Source: Desulfatiglandales bacterium
Lineage (GTDB): Bacteria; Desulfobacterota; DSM-4660; Desulfatiglandales; Desulfatiglandaceae
DNA: 64,000 nucleotides
Assembly: GCA_963666345.1 (NCBI GenBank)
Contig: OY762721.1
Span: 3,232,001-3,296,000, forward strand
Direction: 5' to 3'
Shown here: positions 43,441 to 51,694 of the stretch, piece by piece
How the letters are laid out: every line of letters begins with the position of its first letter
Position numbering within the stretch: the stretch's first letter is position 1
Notes under the pieces: model-generated
The model's database searches: none
What the model was told of the DNA's origin: nothing
What the model saw: the letters and a program-made list of their open reading frames with translations, nothing else
Position numbers and translations under genes: made by a program

Positions 43441-43760
43441 ATAAACGAGAATTTTTGCGTGATATTACGTCATATTCACCCGATCACCTATGACCAATTA
43501 TCCTTAGATAATAAAAGGGATTTTGGACAGAATAGTATAATATTTCAGTATCTTAAATTGAAACGCAGCCCTATTTTGCACATTTTTAAAGATATTGGTG
43601 CATAATTTCCTGTGTAGAAAAAGATACAAAAATGAAAGAAATTAGCCCGATAAACGAGAATTATTTCCGGATTATTGAATAAACAAGAAGAAATTCACGC
43701 TTTACCAATAAACGGGAAATAATTCTCACTACTCACTCATTATTTTTGAATAAACACCGA
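43441..43760 (+). repeat. Repeated motif ATAAAC(R)(R)GAA
   Basis: Copies at 43441, 43650, 43679, 43708 (last three spaced 29 bp apart), partial copy at 43750; CCCGATAAACGAGAATT occurs twice. Confidence 0.65.
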
Positions 43761-43768
43761 GGAGTACC

Positions 43769-44035
43769 ATGAGATCAAAAGATGAATTGATTAAAGCGTT
43801 GGGAGCTCTTCACGGGACACCAAATGCTGCAACTTGGGAAGAGGCAAAAGCTGAATTTACAGTATCTTGCCTCAATGACATCGTAAATTCAATGAGCGAA
43901 TTAAATAAAACCATACAAGACAATTCAAAATCGAATGATGCAATCGCTAATAAAGTATTCTGGCTAAACATCGTAATAGCGGCGGCGACTGTTGTTGGTT
44001 CAATTGCGACAGCGGTTATAGCATTTTCAGGGTAG
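43769..44035 (+). CDS. Cassette hypothetical protein with C-terminal TM helix
   Basis: 88 aa, GAGGAG RBS, followed by attC. Confidence 0.7.
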   Translation: MRSKDELIKALGALHGTPNAATWEEAKAEFTVSCLNDIVNSMSELNKTIQDNSKSNDAIANKVFWLNIVIAAATVVGSIATAVIAFSG

Positions 44036-44063
44036 TCTTTTATCTCGGTCTTAGAACATTAAA

Positions 44064-44193
44064 AAATAACCAGGCAATTAAGTGCGACTGGCTGTTTTCC
44101 TTGCCGATTGAAATTCAACAGTATCAAAGGTCTTCATACTTTATCGACCATCGGCGCCATTAATCAGCCAGCGCCTTATCGCCGCCGTTGGGC
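44064..44193 (+). other. attC site 1
   Basis: R'' AAATAAC, inner arms TAAG..CTGGCTG / CAGCCAG..CTTA, R' GTTGGGC. Confidence 0.8.
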
Positions 44194-44211
44194 TAAATAC
44201 GAAGGAGAAAG

Positions 44212-45114
44212 ATGAAAAAAATATTTACCATAATGCCTTTCTCTCATGAATTTCGGCAAGTCTACTCAGTGATACAAGCGGCGGCAATGGAAGCAAGCAT
44301 GTCGTTAGGTGATCAAATTGAAATTATGCAAGCAGATGAATCTATTTCCTCAAAGCCAATTGTTCAAACGGTTCTTTCAAGTCTGGATGAAGCGGACTTG
44401 ATAATTGCAGACCTTTCCCATTCTAGGCCAAATGTACTGTATGAACTTGGTGTGGCACACGGAAGGGAAAAACCAGTAATCCTGATAGGCCAAGGGTCAG
44501 ATTCGAGTATTTTTGATATTGCATCATTTTATACCTTAATTTATGACTCAACACGCATCGAGACATCATTTAAACGAAAGTTGTTTAAACAAATTATCGA
44601 TGCCATTAGTAACCCTGAAAAATTTAGCCATCCGTTCTACCGTCAAGAGCAGGGCGATATTCAAAAACCGACAGTTTTTGTTAGTTACAGTCACGCTGAT
44701 GCAGGAAGCCTTACCCGACTTCAAGTCCATTTGAGACCACTTGAAAAAGAAAACCAAATAGAGCTATGGGACGATACCAGAATTGTAGCTGGTGCTAAAT
44801 GGAAAGAAGAAATAGAGGCAGCACTGGAAAAAGCTGCAATTGCTGTATTGCTAATTAGTGCCGATTTTCTAGCATCAGACTTTGTTGTAGATAACGAATT
44901 GCCACCATTACTTCAAGCTGCAGAAGAAAAAGGTACTACAATATTGTCAGTAATATTAAAGCCCTGTCGTTTTTCGCGCGATAAAAATCTCTCTATATTT
45001 CAGGCGATTAATGACCCAAGAAAACCATTGCTTAGCCAGCCAGAACCAGAGCAGGAAGAAATGTATGCTAAGCTGGCAGAAAGAATAGAAAATGAAATCA
45101 ATGCATCAGCTTAG
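44212..45114 (+). CDS. Nucleoside 2-deoxyribosyltransferase-like domain fused to a TIR domain
   Basis: N-terminal IMPF...ADLIIADLS..RPNVLYELG.AHG..KPVILI; C-terminal VFVSYSHAD...LWDD..I.AG..W..EI..AL...VLLISADFLASDF...EL. Confidence 0.85.
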   Translation: MKKIFTIMPFSHEFRQVYSVIQAAAMEASMSLGDQIEIMQADESISSKPIVQTVLSSLDEADLIIADLSHSRPNVLYELGVAHGREKPVILIGQGSDSSIFDIASFYTLIYDSTRIETSFKRKLFKQIIDAISNPEKFSHPFYRQEQGDIQKPTVFVSYSHADAGSLTRLQVHLRPLEKENQIELWDDTRIVAGAKWKEEIEAALEKAAIAVLLISADFLASDFVVDNELPPLLQAAEEKGTTILSVILKPCRFSRDKNLSIFQAINDPRKPLLSQPEPEQEEMYAKLAERIENEINASA

Positions 45115-45203
45115 TCTGACAATCTCGTTCAGCGGGTAGCGGAAACGTCGGCCAAGATGATGCGGTAAGTTCGGGGCGCCACTTTTGACGAAAAGGGTTG
45201 GGC
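45114..45203 (+). other. attC site 2 (degenerate R'')
   Basis: GTCTGAC ... TCGTTCA / TGACGA ... GTTGGGC. Confidence 0.6.
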
Positions 45204-45219
45204 AAAAGAAGGATTCCAA

Positions 45220-46008
45220 ATGGATACTGCTTTAGGTAATAGACTCATTCAACTCCGTGCTCGAATCGTAGATGGTTTCGATGGAGGTAATTGGGAGGAA
45301 CTCGGGCTGCTTACCGGCACATCGGAATTAATTAATGGTCATCCCCGCCTTTTGAGAAGCCTCTCATGGGGTGATGAAGATTACGCTGGCAACGTTTTAA
45401 CTGTACTGAGGCGGATTGTTGAGCAGGACCCACGAACCTTGACAATCATCGAGAACTACATGGACGAGCACTTTCCAGGGGAATCAACTTACGTATCAGC
45501 CAAACCAGCTGAAAAGCGCATTACATTCGCGCCTTATGTTTTTGAAGTCCCAGATGGGTATGTTGAACTGGACCTGGTTTCCGTAATGATGCCTTTCTCA
45601 GCTGAGTTCACACCGGTATATGAGGCAATTAAACGGGCCACATCAAATTGTCGGCTTCGATGTTTACGCGCGGATGACATTTGGGAAGAGAGTACGATTG
45701 TACAAGATATCTTCAATATTATATTTCGCGCTCAGGTTGTAATTGTTGACTTTACAGGAAAGAACCCGAATGTGATGTATGAGACTGGAATCGCTCATAC
45801 ACTGGGAAAACATGTGATCCCGATTTCTCAATCACTGAACGATGTCCCTTTCGATATGCGCCATCACAGGGTATTGAAATATCTTCCTAACGCTGAAGGT
45901 CTATCAAAACTTTCGACAGATTTAGCTAAAAAACTACGACAAGTGAGTGTTGGCCCTCCATTGTCAACGCTTCCATTAAAGAGTCCAGATGCCGATACAC
46001 CATTTTAA
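45220..46008 (+). CDS. Cassette protein with an uncharacterised N-terminal domain and a C-terminal NDT-like domain
   Basis: C-terminal VMMPF...RADD...IVDFTGKNPNVMYETGIAHTLGK...PFD.RH.R; N-terminal HPRLLRSLSWGDEDY. Confidence 0.8.
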   Translation: MDTALGNRLIQLRARIVDGFDGGNWEELGLLTGTSELINGHPRLLRSLSWGDEDYAGNVLTVLRRIVEQDPRTLTIIENYMDEHFPGESTYVSAKPAEKRITFAPYVFEVPDGYVELDLVSVMMPFSAEFTPVYEAIKRATSNCRLRCLRADDIWEESTIVQDIFNIIFRAQVVIVDFTGKNPNVMYETGIAHTLGKHVIPISQSLNDVPFDMRHHRVLKYLPNAEGLSKLSTDLAKKLRQVSVGPPLSTLPLKSPDADTPF

Positions 46009-46012
46009 CAGC

Positions 46013-46230
46013 GCCCAACAATCGGATGAACTTGAGCGGGCAAAACGACGCGCCCGCCAAGTTACCCGTACAATGGCGCAGGACGCTCCGCGCCTACGCC
46101 ATTGGCCCCGCGCATTATCACCCGAATGCTGTCCGGCGCTTCGCGCCGACCATCAAGCGGCTGCAACGACGGTCGCCCACGCGAGAAAACTCGTGCGTTC
46201 GCCCGCCGCTGATCCGCGGGGCCGTTCGGT
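46013..46230 (+). other. Two tandem degenerate attC-like hairpins
   Basis: GCCCAAC..AACTTGAGCGGGC / GCCCGCCAAGTT with no R'; then AAGCGGCTGCA...CGCCGCTGATCCGC...GTTCGGT with a degenerate R''. Confidence 0.65.
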
Positions 46231-46259
46231 AACAACAGGCACAAAACCATCTGGAGTTT

Positions 46260-46940
46260 ATGATGTCATGGGATGACTATCACTATTATCAACAAGAAGC
46301 CGCCATGGAAGAATTTCTTGAGCACGAGTTGCGTCGGATTTCCGAAGAGCCAGTGTTTTATTATTTAGCGGCATATGGTGATGCGATCGAAGAGCGCGTT
46401 AAACGCTGCCTAGATCAGGCACAATCCTTGAGTGACAGGGGATACCCTGGTGCTGCTCTCACTCGTGCTGCATCAGGGATTGAAGTAACAATTCGGTTTT
46501 TTTTAGCGCGTCCTCTGGTTCAAGGTGCATTTTTATCGGACGAATGGGCAGAGCTTTTATCTCGGAAATTGTTACACGGCCGTACTGCAGATGACAGAGA
46601 ATTACTCCCTGCCATCCTCCGCAACTGGAAAATGGATATAACCAGTATCAAGTTGTCGGATGGGTCTCAAGCATGGGAACAGATAGTTAAAAAAGTGTGG
46701 CCGAGCCGCAATAGCTATGTGCACAAAGCTGACGACACTTCGAATGAAGACGCTCTTCTTGCTATTGAGTGCCTGAAGATCTTGCTCTCTCAGGTGGTAG
46801 ATCCGATCGCAAAGAAACTTGGTTTCACGCGAGAACAGACTGGGTGTTGGTCAATAGTCAATGTGGAGAATCCCCCGGATTTTCCACATCTAAATTCTCC
46901 ACGGACTTATACCCGACAAGACCCGTTCCTGCCATTGTAA
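46260..46940 (+). CDS. Cassette hypothetical protein, HEPN-like
   Basis: Helical pattern AALTRAASGIE and Rx4H motif RNSYVH. Confidence 0.6.
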   Translation: MMSWDDYHYYQQEAAMEEFLEHELRRISEEPVFYYLAAYGDAIEERVKRCLDQAQSLSDRGYPGAALTRAASGIEVTIRFFLARPLVQGAFLSDEWAELLSRKLLHGRTADDRELLPAILRNWKMDITSIKLSDGSQAWEQIVKKVWPSRNSYVHKADDTSNEDALLAIECLKILLSQVVDPIAKKLGFTREQTGCWSIVNVENPPDFPHLNSPRTYTRQDPFLPL

Positions 46941-46945
46941 GGATG

Positions 46946-47068
46946 GCACAACCATCGGGTGAACTTGAGCGGGTATAAATTGCGGTTGGCGTATTGGGCC
47001 GATTGGCCATTAGATTGGCTTTATATCAAATATTTTCTGAGCAACCCGCGAAGTTACCCGTAACGTTA
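46946..47068 (+). other. attC site 4, R' interrupted by group II intron
   Basis: R'' GCACAAC, arms AACTTGAGCGGGT / ACCCGCGAAGTT; R' is GTTA (47065-47068) plus GGC (47841-47843). Confidence 0.8.
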
Positions 47069-47840
47069 GCGCGCTAAGCGAAGCTAGGTGCATCTTGCAG
47101 GGTTAAAGTCCCTGTCGGGTAAGGGTTAGCCACCCACCCGTATCGAGTGTTGCGCCTGTGGAGGAGACGTGCGAAGCATGTCGAACAAAACAGGTGAAGC
47201 GTACACAGAGAATCATGCAGGCTGTAGGGGAGACCGTGCTCCCTGAAGTGCTGGTATCGCTTCGAGAAAAGCTTGTTCCCGGTCGCCGAGGGTTGTAACG
47301 CACGCCGAACGCAATACAAGATCATCCGTTAAAGGCGAGGATGTGAAGGACCGGCGGAGTTCTCAAGCCGTAGCATGTATGAAGAGATGTACACAAGAAC
47401 TTGGGAGGCCCACTCGACTCCTGAGGTAAATATGGGATGACGATATTGAGGCACGAAGGGGAAACCCGGACACAGGACTATGCGTAGCCCTAAGTTTGAC
47501 CTAAAGCAGGAAGGGGGACCGAAGCGGAAGTGGAGAAACCCTGGTCGTGTGGGAGTCGGATCAGGCATAGTACTCTGAGCGTGGGAAAGCCACGTACACG
47601 CCTTTACTAGGCATGGGGAAGGACCTGACGGAAGTACGCAGCCCGCAAAGGAAACTTATGCCGGACACGCAGGATCGGATTAACATAAGCAAACCTCACT
47701 GTGGGGAATAGCAATGCAGGAATTTAAACGTTAATTAAATTCGCTGTCACGGAAGCGAGTACAACCGAGGAGCCCCGTGAGGGAAAACTTCATGCGGGGA
47801 TCTGTGTGTGTGGCCGGGTAACCAGCATTCCTACCACGAC
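47069..47840 (+). ncRNA. Group II intron lacking its reverse transcriptase ORF
   Basis: 5' GCGCG (GUGYG-like); domain V GAGCCCCGTGAGGGAAAACTTCATGCGGGGATC (47770-47802); domain VI ending CCTACCACGAC; removal restores GTTAGGC. Confidence 0.88.
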
Positions 47841-47967
47841 GGCTGGCTGAGAAAGTGATATTTATTTTTTTGGTGTAGCAACACATACTTGCGACGAGGT
47901 TGCACTTCGATTTTGGCAAAAAATCAAAACAGGCTTTATAAACAACATAGCCTTTGAGGAGGTAAGA

Positions 47968-48231
47968 ATGGGCGATAGCGCAGGGAAAGCAAGAATTTTA
48001 GAAAAAAAAGGCTTTTCTTATCATTTCAGTAGAATGATTTACATAAACAGTGAAAAGAGAAAGGTTTTTAGTCACGAAGCTATTGACGACAATCCTGTTA
48101 GCTGGCTCGAAGAAAAGATTAACGAAGCAAGCGACCCAAACGATTGGCAATTTTATTTTAACGAAACCATAGATGAAGAAATCAAACGTGACGTCTTGAG
48201 AGAAATAGCTCCAACCTATGTGAGGGGTTGA
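47968..48231 (+). CDS. Small hypothetical protein (candidate antitoxin)
   Basis: 87 aa, GAGGAGG RBS, stop overlaps the next ORF start (TTGA). Confidence 0.7.
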   Translation: MGDSAGKARILEKKGFSYHFSRMIYINSEKRKVFSHEAIDDNPVSWLEEKINEASDPNDWQFYFNETIDEEIKRDVLREIAPTYVRG

Positions 48232-48881
48232 GAAACATGGATCGAGAGATACGAAATAACTTAAGGGATGAATATTTTAGGCTTCTGCCAAATATAAGAA
48301 AAATACTCGAAGAGATGGAAGCTACTATAAGCTATGCACTTGTTTCAATAAAGAAGAAACTAAAAAACCATGAACATATAGAATTGCAGTCAAGAGTAAA
48401 AGATTGTGAAAGCGCAATAAACGCGCTCAGGCCACCAGGAGGAAAATTTTCGCCAGCTAAGGCTGGGGAATATTCATTGGTCAAATTAGAAGACCTTGCC
48501 GGTGTGAGAGTCTTGGTATTTCCACGACGACTTATTGAAGAGGTCGATCAACAAATATCAATGTCTTTGCCTGGTTGGACCCATAAGCCAATTAAACGTG
48601 ATAATGCTTCAGAAGAAATATTGGTGAACAAATATTTCGGACACATAGACACTAAAAATGAAATTTATGGTGAATATCAAATTGCACCTATGTTGTTAGG
48701 ATTATTTTGGCAAGTTGAGCACGCAGTTCTTTATAAACCCAGTTCTATACTAAAAGGTATTGAGACAGATTTTTTAATTCAAGCAAAGAGAGAGGCTATT
48801 TACACGGCATTTGATGAATTTGAAAAACGATTTGAAGATATGGTCACTTTGAATATTGAAAAGGGTTATTACAAGACATAG
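48228..48881 (+). CDS. RelA/SpoT synthetase-domain protein (small alarmone synthetase-like)
   Basis: SRVKDCESA, EDLAGVRV, EYQI, FWQVEH motifs; alternative ATG at 48237. Confidence 0.78.
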   Translation: MRNMDREIRNNLRDEYFRLLPNIRKILEEMEATISYALVSIKKKLKNHEHIELQSRVKDCESAINALRPPGGKFSPAKAGEYSLVKLEDLAGVRVLVFPRRLIEEVDQQISMSLPGWTHKPIKRDNASEEILVNKYFGHIDTKNEIYGEYQIAPMLLGLFWQVEHAVLYKPSSILKGIETDFLIQAKREAIYTAFDEFEKRFEDMVTLNIEKGYYKT

Positions 48882-48980
48882 AAATGCGATTTCTAATATA
48901 AATCTCGATTGTTTGTATATGAAATGACAAATTTGATATCTTATTTTATCGCATATTTGTAACGCTTAAATCTGTTTTTT

Positions 48981-49052
48981 GCCCAACAAAGGCGTGAACC
49001 AGATTCGAAAAAGCTATCGTTTTTTTCGTCCTGGTTATGCTTGGTGTTCCAT
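48981..49052 (+). other. attC site 5
   Basis: GCCCAAC, arms AACCAG..CGAAAAA / TTTTTCG..CTGGTT, GTTCCAT. Confidence 0.7.
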
Positions 49053-49557
49053 GATAATTATCCAAGCATTGATTTGTGATTGCCTAAAAATGTCAATGAT
49101 ACCTCTTAGATACATAATTAGAAATCTGGAGCTAGAGACTTGCTGAAAATGCAAGAAACCATGAGTTCCGGATATCTAAAAGAACGTGATAAAGAGGATG
49201 ATTTATGCCTAGGTCCTGAACCTAGGAGGCAATGGAGCCAAGAGCTCGTTGGACGACTTGTGAAGGTGAAACGATGGTGTCTTATATAGAAACCATCTAT
49301 CACTCCTCCCTAAGGGTTGAAAACTGCTTAATTGCTTGTAATGCCAAAGTTTATGCCAGTTCAAAGAAGGGATGTTATGCCACGATTTTGCAATATATAG
49401 GTGTTATGAAGTAACTATATAAACATTGTTACATTTCACAACAAATGTCAAAAATTAAACAGATTTAAAGTTTGAAGTAAAATAAACCCACCCATTAAAT
49501 TCTCAATCGATAAGGTTCAACAAAATAAGTGTCATTACAAAATTTGCGGAGTGACCA

Positions 49558-50490
49558 ATGCTGATTAAAATATTAAAGATTTTACCTCCTTCCATTTCAT
49601 ATTTTTCGTTCTACGCTATCATAAGTATTGCGATGTTTTTTCGGTTTTTATTCTCGTCAGTTTATGGAGCCTTATCTCTTTCTATATGTTTGTATTATTA
49701 TTTTAAATTGGCGACATCTTCACCTCCTTTTTCTGCGTTAGAGTTGCTTGACTGGTCTATATCTCTTTCACCAGCATATAAAACAGCAATTCTGACTTCC
49801 TCCATAACGATATCTGGATTTGCTGTAGCGTTCCACACCGCTACAATAAATTGGCGGAATCAAATGAAAGCCCAGTTGAAATCTCAGGCTGCCAATGAGG
49901 TAGAAAATTTTTTTGCTTTTGTTGCTCAAAATATAAACACAACCACGATTTATATAAAATCATTAATCAAAATCGTTAACGACATCCAAAAAGAAGACTC
50001 CACTATAGAATCGATTGGGTTTTCAATTGGTTACGCCCAAGGTAAAGCACAAGAGTTTTTAGATGCGAGAAATGCTTTATCCCAAGCGTCTGTCGATGTT
50101 CATAGACTTATTGGGAAGAATTACGGTCTGTTAACATCAAGTTTTGGGCAGTTACCGCTACTTCAAAATGCTGCGAGTTCACTAACTCATATTGCGAATA
50201 AGATGTGGGTTCATATACCTATTGTCGATCTGAACAGTGATGCATATATACAGTCATTTCTTAATCAAGCAAATATGACAGAATATAAAAATTTTATTGA
50301 GACGTGTAAAAATAATGAGATTAAGATGTTCGGTCTGTCAGGTGGTGTGCAAGGCGCTTTAAATTCACCGATAATAGGTTTTTCATTCCCTCAGTTTGTT
50401 CACCTTGTTTCAAAAAAGAAAGAATTTAAAAAATATATTAGAGGACTGCATGGGCAGCTTAATGATAATGTCGAAAAAAACAAAACGTAA
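49558..50490 (+). CDS. Cassette hypothetical membrane protein
   Basis: 310-aa AT-rich ORF with about three N-terminal hydrophobic segments; followed by attC. Confidence 0.7.
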   Translation: MLIKILKILPPSISYFSFYAIISIAMFFRFLFSSVYGALSLSICLYYYFKLATSSPPFSALELLDWSISLSPAYKTAILTSSITISGFAVAFHTATINWRNQMKAQLKSQAANEVENFFAFVAQNINTTTIYIKSLIKIVNDIQKEDSTIESIGFSIGYAQGKAQEFLDARNALSQASVDVHRLIGKNYGLLTSSFGQLPLLQNAASSLTHIANKMWVHIPIVDLNSDAYIQSFLNQANMTEYKNFIETCKNNEIKMFGLSGGVQGALNSPIIGFSFPQFVHLVSKKKEFKKYIRGLHGQLNDNVEKNKT

Positions 50491-50530
50491 CATATCAAAA
50501 ATTTGATTTCTCACTTTCTACGACCTTGAA

Positions 50531-50624
50531 ATGTAACAAATCGTTGCAGCAGACCGCTTGGGGCGGCGTTCCTTGACCCAGTGCCCTCCTTGCAGTCGGT
50601 GGCCCCTGAACTCAACCGTTAACA
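50531..50624 (+). other. attC site 6
   Basis: ATGTAAC AAATCGTTGCAGCAGACCG ... CGGT..CTGAACTCAACC GTTAACA. Confidence 0.75.
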
Positions 50625-50971
50625 ATCATTATCCCTATCTAAAAGTTCAGATCAGCCATAAAAAGCAACAATGCCAAAGGTAAACACAAGAGACTCGCGA
50701 CTTTATTTTGTGGACCATTGATTGACCTGACGGGGATTACTGTTTCGTATCACAGCTGTATCCGGAACTCTGAAAATCTATTGAGGGGGTCGGAAAATGA
50801 ACAAAATGTGGCGGTGTGCTCCATCGATATGATATTTTCAGCCTTGATACGGCATGCACTGTTACTCTTGGGCACAGGGGTCTGCCTGACGGTGGAGGAT
50901 TATTTTTTGATTTTCCGATGCACATCTCGCGTTTACCTTTATCGTAAGAACCTCAATATTTCAGAATATAT

Positions 50972-51006
50972 TTGACAAAACCGCCAATCCTGACTAGACT
51001 GACTAG
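50972..51006 (+). promoter_or_regulatory. sigma70 promoter of the TA operon with overlapping repeat (candidate operator)
   Basis: TTGACA-N17-TAGACT; CTGACTAG repeated at 50990-50997 and 50999-51006. Confidence 0.7.
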
Positions 51007-51029
51007 TGTTAACTAATGGGGGAGGTAAA

Positions 51030-51281
51030 ATGAGGACAACATGGAAATTGCAGGATGCCAAGGCTAAATTCAGCAAAGTCGTTGAGGATGCATTAAAGAT
51101 AGGCCCGCAATTTGTGACTCGCAGGGGCAAAAAGGCAGTGGTTGTGGTCTCTGTGGAGGAATACGAGGAACTCATTTCAACCAAACCGTCTTTCAAGGAA
51201 TTTCTGCTTGGTTGCCCGAAGATGGGGAATGATTTTGAGCTTGAACGGAAAAAGGATCTTCCAAGGAGTATCCAATTTTGA
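51030..51281 (+). CDS. Phd/YefM family antitoxin
   Basis: WKLQDAKAKFSKVV..A...GPQFVTRRGK..VVVVS.EEY; GGAGG RBS. Confidence 0.92.
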   Translation: MRTTWKLQDAKAKFSKVVEDALKIGPQFVTRRGKKAVVVVSVEEYEELISTKPSFKEFLLGCPKMGNDFELERKKDLPRSIQF

Positions 51282-51694
51282 ACTATCTACTGGACACCTG
51301 TGTGATATCGGAACTTGTTAAGCCGTCACCGGATGCAAATGTAGTTGACTGGTTGAGCGCCACTCCAACGGAAAGATTATACTTAAGTGTAATAACAATA
51401 GGCGAGATACGAAAAGGTCTGATAAGGCTTCCGGATTCAAGGCGGAAAGTTTTGTTGGCAAATTGGCTCAATATGCTGCTTGAAGACTACCGGAGTAGAA
51501 TCTACTCAATAGATCCGGCTGTCGCGGAAAATTGGGGTACAATTCAAGGAAATGCCGAGAAAAAAGGGAAACCGATGTCTTCACTGGACAGCTTGATCGC
51601 CGCTATAGCCTATACCCACAACTTGATTCTGGTGACCAGAAATGTGCGTGATTTTGAGGCAAGCGACCTCCCGATCCAAAATCCCTGGGCGTAA
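51278..51694 (+). CDS. vapC: VapC (PIN domain) toxin
   Basis: YLLDTCVISE, SVITIGEI, DSLIAA.A, LVTRNVRDF, NPW. Confidence 0.93.
   Translation: MNYLLDTCVISELVKPSPDANVVDWLSATPTERLYLSVITIGEIRKGLIRLPDSRRKVLLANWLNMLLEDYRSRIYSIDPAVAENWGTIQGNAEKKGKPMSSLDSLIAAIAYTHNLILVTRNVRDFEASDLPIQNPWA

Follow-up and report, generated by a model that had tools for sequence, protein, structure and literature searches.

The window analysed in this study, a stretch of 64,000 nucleotides of the genome of a Desulfatiglandales bacterium (contig OY762721.1, positions 3,232,001 to 3,296,000), carries a cassette array in which an attC-like recombination site is interrupted by a group II intron of 772 nt (positions 47069–47840 of the window, plus strand), starting with GCGCG and ending with ...CGAC. 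The coordinates of its parts and of the surrounding features are collected in Table 1. The search with Rfam models showed a match of 105.2 bits to RF02005 (group-II-D1D4-6; gathering score 49, E 9.6e-29), the sole family above threshold in the 64-kb window, and the identification as a group II intron made in an earlier reading of the DNA from its letters alone (the sequence-only reading) was thereby borne out. For the domains V and VI recognised in that reading the result was divided, as the Intron_gpII model reached 32.6 bits on positions 47768–47840 (E 2.9e-4, relaxed threshold), under its gathering score of 40, but the structure itself was supported by compensatory changes in 13 of 27 pairs in an alignment with 16 relatives. 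No plus-strand open reading frame (ORF) of at least 50 aa lies inside the intron according to the ORF list of the window, and the intron is single-copy in its 4.16-Mb genome.

The ends of the intron were set by alignment with its relatives, in which the first base is 47069, with GCGCG opposite GUGCG, and the last is 47840; the 3′ end ..CCUACCACGAC was identical in a full-length relative (L013). Removal of the intron joins GTTA to GGC and gives GTTAGGC, which fits the GTTRRRY consensus of the attC R′ core. Both the 772-nt boundaries and the restored core, as proposed from the letters, were upheld by this alignment. At the termini, the 3′ AC conforms to AY and the 5′ GCGCG departs from GUGYG. 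The GCGCG start is also found in copies L025 and L016 and is not damage, since full-length copies with intact ORFs (L034 and L036) start alike; other members of the lineage begin with UCGCG or UUACG.

The interrupted site showed, by rules of our own, the features of an attC: R′′ and R′ ends, a bulged imperfect palindrome, and a position 3′ of a cassette ORF. The L′′/L′ stem was bulged in the folds of both strands, the bottom strand giving the bulged hairpin expected of attC, and the palindrome score of the site (−17.9 kcal/mol) was below that of every one of the 158 GTTA/GTTG positions that served as controls from the same loci. The start of the site recurs 933 nt upstream, behind the preceding ORF (family D15). 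The intron shares its strand with every cassette ORF and with the R′′ to R′ direction, and it was inserted 3 nt to the 3′ side of the canonical G|TT crossover. With the intron inserted, the R′ core GTTAGGC becomes GTTAGCG, in which GTTAG is kept and the last two bases are changed. The central claim of an ORF-less group II intron in the R′ core of an attC, in cassette sense, was thus confirmed by the RF02005 match, the boundary alignment and the attC-like site.

The full-length relative L013, from a genome (G024) within the same family, has an RNA 92% identical over intron positions 3–643 and 79% identical over positions 675–772; the approximately 1.3 kb in between encodes a protein of 433 aa (P0001) with an RVT_1 domain and no endonuclease domain. 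It lies behind a cassette-like ORF and an attC-like palindrome, at ..GGCGTTG|GUGCG. Comparison with L013 showed that the nonapeptide KQTSLWGIA, which had been taken for the stub of the N-terminus of an intron-encoded protein, aligns with MQTSLRGIV of the full-length protein and lies one nucleotide away from the position first given. In place of its start codon stands AAG, and a deletion has removed the ORF from about codon 10 almost up to its stop, which makes the copy non-autonomous, as had been proposed. The ribozyme without the ORF remnant measures about 640 nt, and the 772 nt include a domain IV remnant of about 130 nt.

A scan of one genome per species gave 598 relatives of the protein, and 78 loci were kept. 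The 5′ junctions were mapped with blastn and two nhmmer profiles, and the protein tree was built with 74 rows after 11 duplicates or second ORFs had been dropped. The clade holding L013 (32 rows, support 100) contained 18 junctions ending in GTTA or GTTG, nine other junctions, four unmapped rows and one that was too short, as against one GTTA/GTTG, 22 other, 18 unmapped and one too short in the sister clade (42 rows; Bacillaceae, Syntrophomonas and others). The insertion sites of full-length relatives, by which the proposed specificity could be judged, therefore agree with it: GTTA/GTTG ends 18 of 27 mapped junctions in the clade and one of 23 in its sister. A further five GTTA junctions belong to copies not represented in the tree (the window copy, L025, second copies in L055 and L059, and L113). 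In all, 24 independent junctions end in GTTA or GTTG, for a chance expectation of about 1 in 128. Many of the upstream flanks are textbook attC sites, such as GCCTAAC...GTTA|GGC in L034, which is fully paired, and the palindrome score placed 11 of 19 scored GTTR junctions, and none of ten non-GTTR junctions, in the lowest 5% of the 158 controls. The relatives are co-oriented with the upstream ORF wherever one was seen. No close member of the clade was found among the PLSDB plasmids, where the best match to P0001 was 43% identical. Two loci of the collection hold compound arrangements: in L038 (1307–5499) two attC introns of the UCGCG type stand in direct tandem, the 3′ end of one abutting the 5′ end of the next, and in L060 an unrelated intron of the RF01999 type is nested in the protein gene of an attC intron.

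The exon-binding site 1 (EBS1) of the window copy, UAACG, pairs over 5 bp with CGTTA at the 5′ exon end, its intron-binding site 1 (IBS1), and this partner contains the conserved GTT of the attC R′ core. The assignment of EBS1 made in the sequence-only reading was right, for the loop covaries with the 5′ exon among the relatives. Pairing of at least 5 bp with the own exon (at most one G–U) was found in 24 of 27 introns, as against 97 of 492 mismatched intron–exon combinations. Examples of the covariation are CCGTTA with UAACGG, GGCGTTA with UAACGCC, GTGTTA with UAACAC and CATTTA with UAAAUG, and the members at unrelated sites have fitting EBS1 loops as well (AAGAGU with ACUCUU, AAUGCG with CGCAUU, AGUACG with CGUACU). 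The EBS2 loop, upstream of the EBS1 stem, pairs with the attC L′ arm or spacer in several members, over 8 bp in L055a, 9 bp in L052, 7 bp in L053 and 6 bp in L047 and L051. From the EBS1/exon covariation and the pairing of EBS2 with L′, the lineage is predicted to read the conserved R′ CGTTA with EBS1 and, in some copies, a particular attC with EBS2. These data also bear on the suggestion that the GTTA junction is a coincidence, or that the boundaries are one base off, so that no attC core is split. The GCGCG start, which departs from GUGYG, and the junction of one subgroup (UCGCG...GAG|A), ambiguous by 1 nt through a shared A, could be read in that way. Such an explanation is very improbable in the face of the number of independent GTTA/GTTG junctions, the base-for-base alignment of relatives starting with GUGCG with GCGCG after the same GTTA, and the covariation of EBS1 with the exon end as defined here.

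By its predicted structure the intron is assigned to the IIE/IIF type and not to IIC. The domain V loop is of 5 nt in the window copy and in all 16 aligned relatives, and a loop of this size, in place of a GNRA tetraloop, is a hallmark of IIE/IIF introns (Nagy et al. 2013, PMC3753933). A compact ribozyme (450–700 nt in the published definition) and a protein without endonuclease domain, as in the relative, are further traits of these introns that were found. Their definition also includes an alpha′ in a terminal loop of DId3 and an extra bulge in DId3. The label of class E, as opposed to class F, is a lead taken from indirect hints in Syntrophomonas; the reference proteins of class E are those of Ps.tu.I1, Cl.be.I2, Sy.wo.I1 and others. 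Syntrophomonas introns stand in the sister clade with 145 bits on RF02005, and Nagy et al. 2013 (PMC3753933) count an intron of Syntrophomonas wolfei among class E. In a subgroup of full-length members (L013, L033–L037, L040, L045, L046 and L060), many of which also have 5′ ends other than GUGYG (GCGCG, UCGCG), AAC replaces AGC where the domain V triad lies.

An ordinary IIC-attC or class C intron in unusual orientation would likewise account for an insertion in an attC core, where IIC-attC introns insert (PMC3001079), and a class C case on the top strand is cited by Sonbol and Siam 2021 (PMC7923331). The present intron is hardly credible as one of these: its match is to RF02005, that of the genome's class C-type intron to RF02001; its ribozyme is of about 640 nt, its relatives have an EBS2 and its domain V loop has 5 nt; and P0001 is just 35% identical to the class C-type protein of the genome. 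The RF02005-type RNA, the 5-nt loop, the endonuclease-less protein of the relatives and the sense orientation bear out an attC-targeting lineage distinct from the IIC-attC introns.

The window copy itself has decayed in part. Of the 15 consensus pairs of domain VI, five are broken or missing through deletion: GGGGGG has turned into UGUGUG with a 2-nt deletion, and there is one C–A mismatch. Domains V and VI together fold with −24.5 kcal/mol (z −0.7), as compared with −34.6 to −46.4 kcal/mol (z −3.4 to −4.9) in three full-length relatives. The search of its own genome with P0001 gave one match, 35% identical, which belongs to the class C-type intron at C1:2.892 Mb; RVT_1 is found at two loci of the genome, neither of them beside an RF02005 intron. 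Splicing or mobilisation in trans, as envisaged in the sequence-only reading, is not favoured by this lack of a helper in the genome or by the decayed domain VI. Having lost its ORF, with a decayed domain VI and no gene for a cognate protein in the genome, the copy is probably dead, an inert relic. In two public DNA runs from marine sediment, contigs identical to the window were found across the 5′ junction (X3, 46956–47230; X4, 47029–47179). No contig joining 47068 to 47841 was found in the public runs, of which the single RNA run (X19) covered conserved parts of relatives only, not the locus.

The same data may be read in favour of a working ribozyme that self-splices, perhaps hydrolytically, from the cassette transcript, is neutral to what lies downstream and is kept as a splicing-only element. 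Its domain I scores 105 bits against 108–114 bits in full-length relatives, domain V is fully paired with an AGC triad, EBS1 and IBS1 pair over 5 bp, and the sense orientation means co-transcription with the cassettes. In addition, IIE/IIF introns from which the ORF has been removed self-splice in vitro, with EBS2 dispensable (Nagy et al. 2013, PMC3753933). This explanation is possible but doubtful, given the five broken pairs of domain VI, a fold no better than that of shuffled sequence, the lack of a cognate maturase encoded in the genome and the position in an intergenic attC, which leaves no selection for splicing.

ORF-less copies were also found elsewhere. Genome G366 carries an ORF-less relative of 803 nt at ..GATTGTTA|GUGCG....GAU|GACGCG, behind an attC-like palindrome and with a restored core GTTAGAC, and genome G006 carries a 5′-truncated copy, likewise without ORF. 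No close protein relative was found in G366 (best match 34% identical, assembly 89% complete), and none at E 1e-20 in G006 (assembly 93% complete). According to Zimmerly and Semper 2015 (PMC4424553), ORF-less bacterial introns nearly always share their genome with a related protein; the orphans in the window genome, G366 and G006 depart from this rule.

The most probable explanation of these results, held with good confidence, is that the intron is a decayed, ORF-deleted copy of an endonuclease-less IIE/IIF-type intron whose clade retrohomes into the top (coding) strand of attC. A full-length ancestor with its reverse transcriptase would have entered the top strand, while this was single-stranded, by reverse splicing at a point 3 nt downstream of the G|TT crossover, and the deletion of the ORF would have come afterwards. 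Left without cognate protein and with a weakened domain VI, the copy is, as judged from its sequence, immobile; branching is doubtful and probably lost, and hydrolytic self-splicing from the cassette transcript is the most that it might still perform. Through the insertion, the upstream cassettes would be separated from the next one by 772 nt of structured RNA. Endonuclease-less introns prefer the lagging-strand template. The cumulative GC skew of the genome has its minimum, taken as the origin, at 2.14 Mb (dnaA hits at 2.154 and 2.163 Mb) and its maximum, taken as the terminus, at 0.12 Mb. With the origin and terminus so placed, the plus strand at 3.28 Mb is predicted to be the lagging-strand template, and the sense strand of the intron, which is the attC top strand, to be the one more often single-stranded. 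Such an arrangement fits the replication-dependent priming of endonuclease-less introns (PMC4424553).

Several points weigh against this interpretation. The attC was recognised by our own rules (R′′, bulged L′′/L′ stem, R′) together with folds and not by the model of IntegronFinder; its R′′ GCACAAC fits RYYYAAC at six of seven positions, R′′ and R′ can pair at five of seven positions only, and no integrase family was found among the scanned ORFs of the window, so that the array has no adjoining intI. Nine of the 27 mapped junctions of the L013 clade lie at other sequences, and the clade is thus not exclusively attC-specific; the tree came from a quick IQ-TREE search. In palindrome score, eight of the 19 GTTR junctions did not stand out from the controls; these include AT-rich sites that are attC-like by eye. 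In domains V and VI the window copy shares only about 80% identity with its closest 5′ relatives and, with its AGC, belongs to a different domain V sequence type, though the 5′ 640 nt are closest to the AAC subgroup; the history of the copy may therefore include recombination. Finally, its EBS2–IBS2 pairing is weak (5 bp including one G–U, with unusual spacing), which looks like an insertion guided by EBS1 only or a later exchange of the upstream partner.

The misfit between EBS2 and the upstream attC arm, in view of the fit in several relatives, would also be expected if the intron were a passenger of the downstream cassette that had been brought in through capture by the integrase, with or without its ORF, instead of retrohoming in this host. 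The landing 3 nt past the crossover makes it the first element of the next cassette, and three genomes (G000, with the best hit 35% identical, G366 and G006) have ORF-less or fragmentary copies at or near attC and no cognate protein. Ectopic insertion guided by EBS1 alone explains the weak EBS2 match equally well. Moreover, capture would require that IntI recombine an R′ box altered to GTTAGCG, and the cassette offers no second occurrence for a comparison of junctions, its ORF of 217 aa being found in one of 151 related genomes, which is its own. We regard such an arrival as rather unlikely. Retrohoming of the clade into the attC top strand, which remains the preferred explanation, can be extended to a wider proposal, here put forward tentatively: the clade would be a second, independently evolved attC-specific retroelement that recognises its target by EBS1–R′ pairing on the top strand, and since it lands 3 nt past the crossover it would become the first element of the downstream cassette and be open to shuffling and export by the integrase. 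If so, integron shuffling would explain the ORF-less copies in genomes without a matching reverse transcriptase; integrons would be a vehicle for the spread of introns, and introns a modifier of cassette recombination and expression.

Table 1. Positions of the intron parts, the interrupted site and the neighbouring features, in window coordinates except those preceded by C1.
Feature	Position	Strand	Basis or remark
attI-like leader	43640–43742	+	ATAAACGAGAA-type repeats, ...CTCACTACTCACT; no intI beside it
GC-rich, highly structured element, ~152 nt	46072–46223	+	directly 5′ of R′ GTT (GTTCGGT, 46224–46230) in the neighbouring attC
Other copies of the GC-rich element	C1:1351364–1351515, 1352235–1352386, 1353436–1353590, 1358537–1358688; 3098500–3098651	− (first four); + (last)	
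Upstream cassette ORF, 226 aa	46260–46940	+	no family above threshold
attC-like site, upstream part	46946–47068	+	R′′ GCACAAC 46946–46952, L′′ 46956–46974, variable loop, L′ 47044–47060, GTTA 47065–47068
Intron domain I core	47105–47369	+	RF02005, 105.2 bits; close full-length relatives 108–114 bits
EBS1 UAACG	47296–47300	+	pairs with 5′ exon end CGUUA 47064–47068; loop and exon covary in relatives
Remnant of intron-encoded protein (first nine codons)	47687–47713	+	KQTSLWGIA aligned with MQTSLRGIV of full-length relative
Domain V	47770–47802	+	AGC triad, 2-nt bulge, 5-nt loop GAAAA; 12 of 12 predicted pairs formed
Domain VI	47803–47838	+	putative branch A 47833, 7 nt from the end, where 7–8 nt are usual; helix decayed
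3′ exon start, GGC (last three bases of the split R′ core)	47841–47843	+	sequence, boundary alignment
Downstream cassette, two overlapping ORFs (87 aa and 217 aa)	47968–48881	+	217-aa ORF: RelA_SpoT sub-threshold, E 0.09

All the ORFs from 43769 to 51694 are on the plus strand, with imperfect palindromes in the short spacers between them. Over about 100 nt, the attI-like leader has almost the same sequence as the region adjoining the true integron integrase of the genome (C1:1359039–1359980, 472 bits against TIGR02249), which lies about 1.9 Mb away. With an attI-like leader and no intI in the window, the array is an attI-bearing, integrase-less cluster that resembles a CALIN (cluster of attC sites lacking integron integrases). 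The integrase gene, the only true one of the genome, has one in-frame TGA and may be a pseudogene; a short integrase-like fragment lies at C1:3097163–3097258, beside another copy of the GC-rich element. Upstream cassettes encode a TIR-domain protein (44212–45114; ThsB-like, PADLOC E 1e-23) and a protein with an AbiJ_NTD5 domain (45220–46008), and the last cassette (51006–51694) is a Phd/YefM–PIN toxin–antitoxin pair; by these cassettes the array is predicted to carry defence-type cargo. The cassette directly downstream of the intron had been called toxin-like, a name that is not retained, as its sole basis is the sub-threshold RelA_SpoT match. A scan of 46800–48100 for consensus matches only showed one weak terminator-like site, at 47890–47904, and within the intron no plus-strand site resembling a promoter.

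The neighbouring attC contains an insert of another kind. The GC-rich multi-hairpin element (GATGGCACGG...CGCGGGGCC) is present six times in the genome, within attC sites or at the junction with attI, and each copy is directly followed by the GTT of R′ or of the attI side. Four of the copies lie in the intI-linked array, and five are nearly identical, the window copy being 86% identical. No Rfam family was found for this element, the best match being sul1 with 18 bits (E 0.4). It looks like either a second attC-targeting insert, unrelated to the intron, or an unusual complex attC module.

Two further introns of the genome were noted. A second ORF-less RF02005 intron (L002, C1:3645120–3645797, 182.6 bits, about 680 nt) lies in sense within a kbl-like gene, of the 2-amino-3-ketobutyrate CoA ligase type, and keeps an N-terminal protein stub (MNGYRESDSPIV...); because no cognate reverse transcriptase for it is present in the genome, this housekeeping-type gene may depend on protein-independent splicing. 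At C1:2891325–2891400 (L005, 664–738) lies a c-di-GMP-I-GGC riboswitch (70 bits, gathering score 59) with a terminator-like hairpin and a T-run behind it, and directly after these, from position 782 of L005 onward, is the GUGCG start of the full-length class C-type intron (RF02001, 508-aa protein), transcription into which may be gated by c-di-GMP.

The arrangement found here is not wholly without precedent. Sonbol and Siam 2021 (Mob DNA 12:8, PMC7923331) described class E fragments in a CALIN and, immediately behind an attC, a IIB intron in sense orientation, and cited the top-strand class C (IIC) case already mentioned; in the accessible part of that paper no rule of EBS1–R′ pairing is defined. 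A literature search beyond it, with subscription journals outside its coverage, gave no non-IIC attC-homing introns. The distinct attC-homing lineage on the sense strand is upheld, with its novelty somewhat reduced. The fragments H.ha.F1 and H.ha.F2 (class E, from a CALIN of Halorhodospira halochloris) and the intron UHB.I2 (IIB1/CL1) resemble the window lineage in being non-IIC with endonuclease-less proteins, in being located in cassette arrays or CALINs, closely preceded by an attC or attC-like hairpin, and in their unusual termini; UHB.I2 is, in addition, co-oriented with the cassettes (PMC7923331). They differ in that H.ha.F1 and H.ha.F2 are 5′-truncated, with no 5′ junction, EBS1 pairing or R′ position defined in the accessible text, and in that UHB.I2, compared by its description only, has a protein of class CL1 and is placed after, not inside, the attC (PMC7923331).

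The IIE/IIF introns Cl.be.I2, Pe.th.I2 and Ge.ur.I1-1 (PMC3753933) share with the present lineage the 5-nt loop of domain V, the compact ribozyme, the endonuclease-less protein, the critical EBS1–IBS1 pairing and a covarying EBS2. Unlike the present clade, they occupy ordinary homing sites, no attC specificity being reported for them in the accessible part of the source, and they are set apart by the many non-GUGYG 5′ ends (GCGCG, UCGCG) and the AAC triad subgroup of the clade. The ORF-less intron C.te.I1 of Clostridium tetani resides, like the window copy, in a genome without a related intron-encoded protein; it lies in a coding gene and splices robustly (PMC4424553), whereas the window copy, with its decayed domain VI, interrupts a recombination site between genes.

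The sense orientation may allow these introns to leave cassette transcripts by splicing and so not to block them, and the predicted position of the top strand as lagging-strand template fits the replication-dependent insertion route of endonuclease-less introns. The full-length members are candidate natural tools aimed at integron cassettes, and the repeated finding of ORF-less orphans prompts the question whether introns are carried from genome to genome by integrons. In the review literature (PMC4424553, PMC3001079) attC targeting is treated as a speciality of one class C sub-lineage on the bottom strand. These IIC-attC introns (S.ma.I2 and relatives; Leon, Quiroga, Centron, Roy) are, like the present lineage, mobile, with endonuclease-less proteins and a preference for attC, but they insert in the bottom strand, antisense to the cassettes, have a small IIC ribozyme without EBS2, are said to recognise the folded hairpin as one part of their target, and supply outward promoters (PMC3001079, PMC4424553). 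The present lineage is IIB-like (IIE/IIF type), lies in the top strand in cassette sense and would read the R′ core by EBS1 pairing. The window copy and its relatives thus point to ribozymes of a different class that take on the same task on the opposite strand, by an ordinary, reprogrammable base-pairing rule in which EBS1 UAACG pairs with CGTTA.

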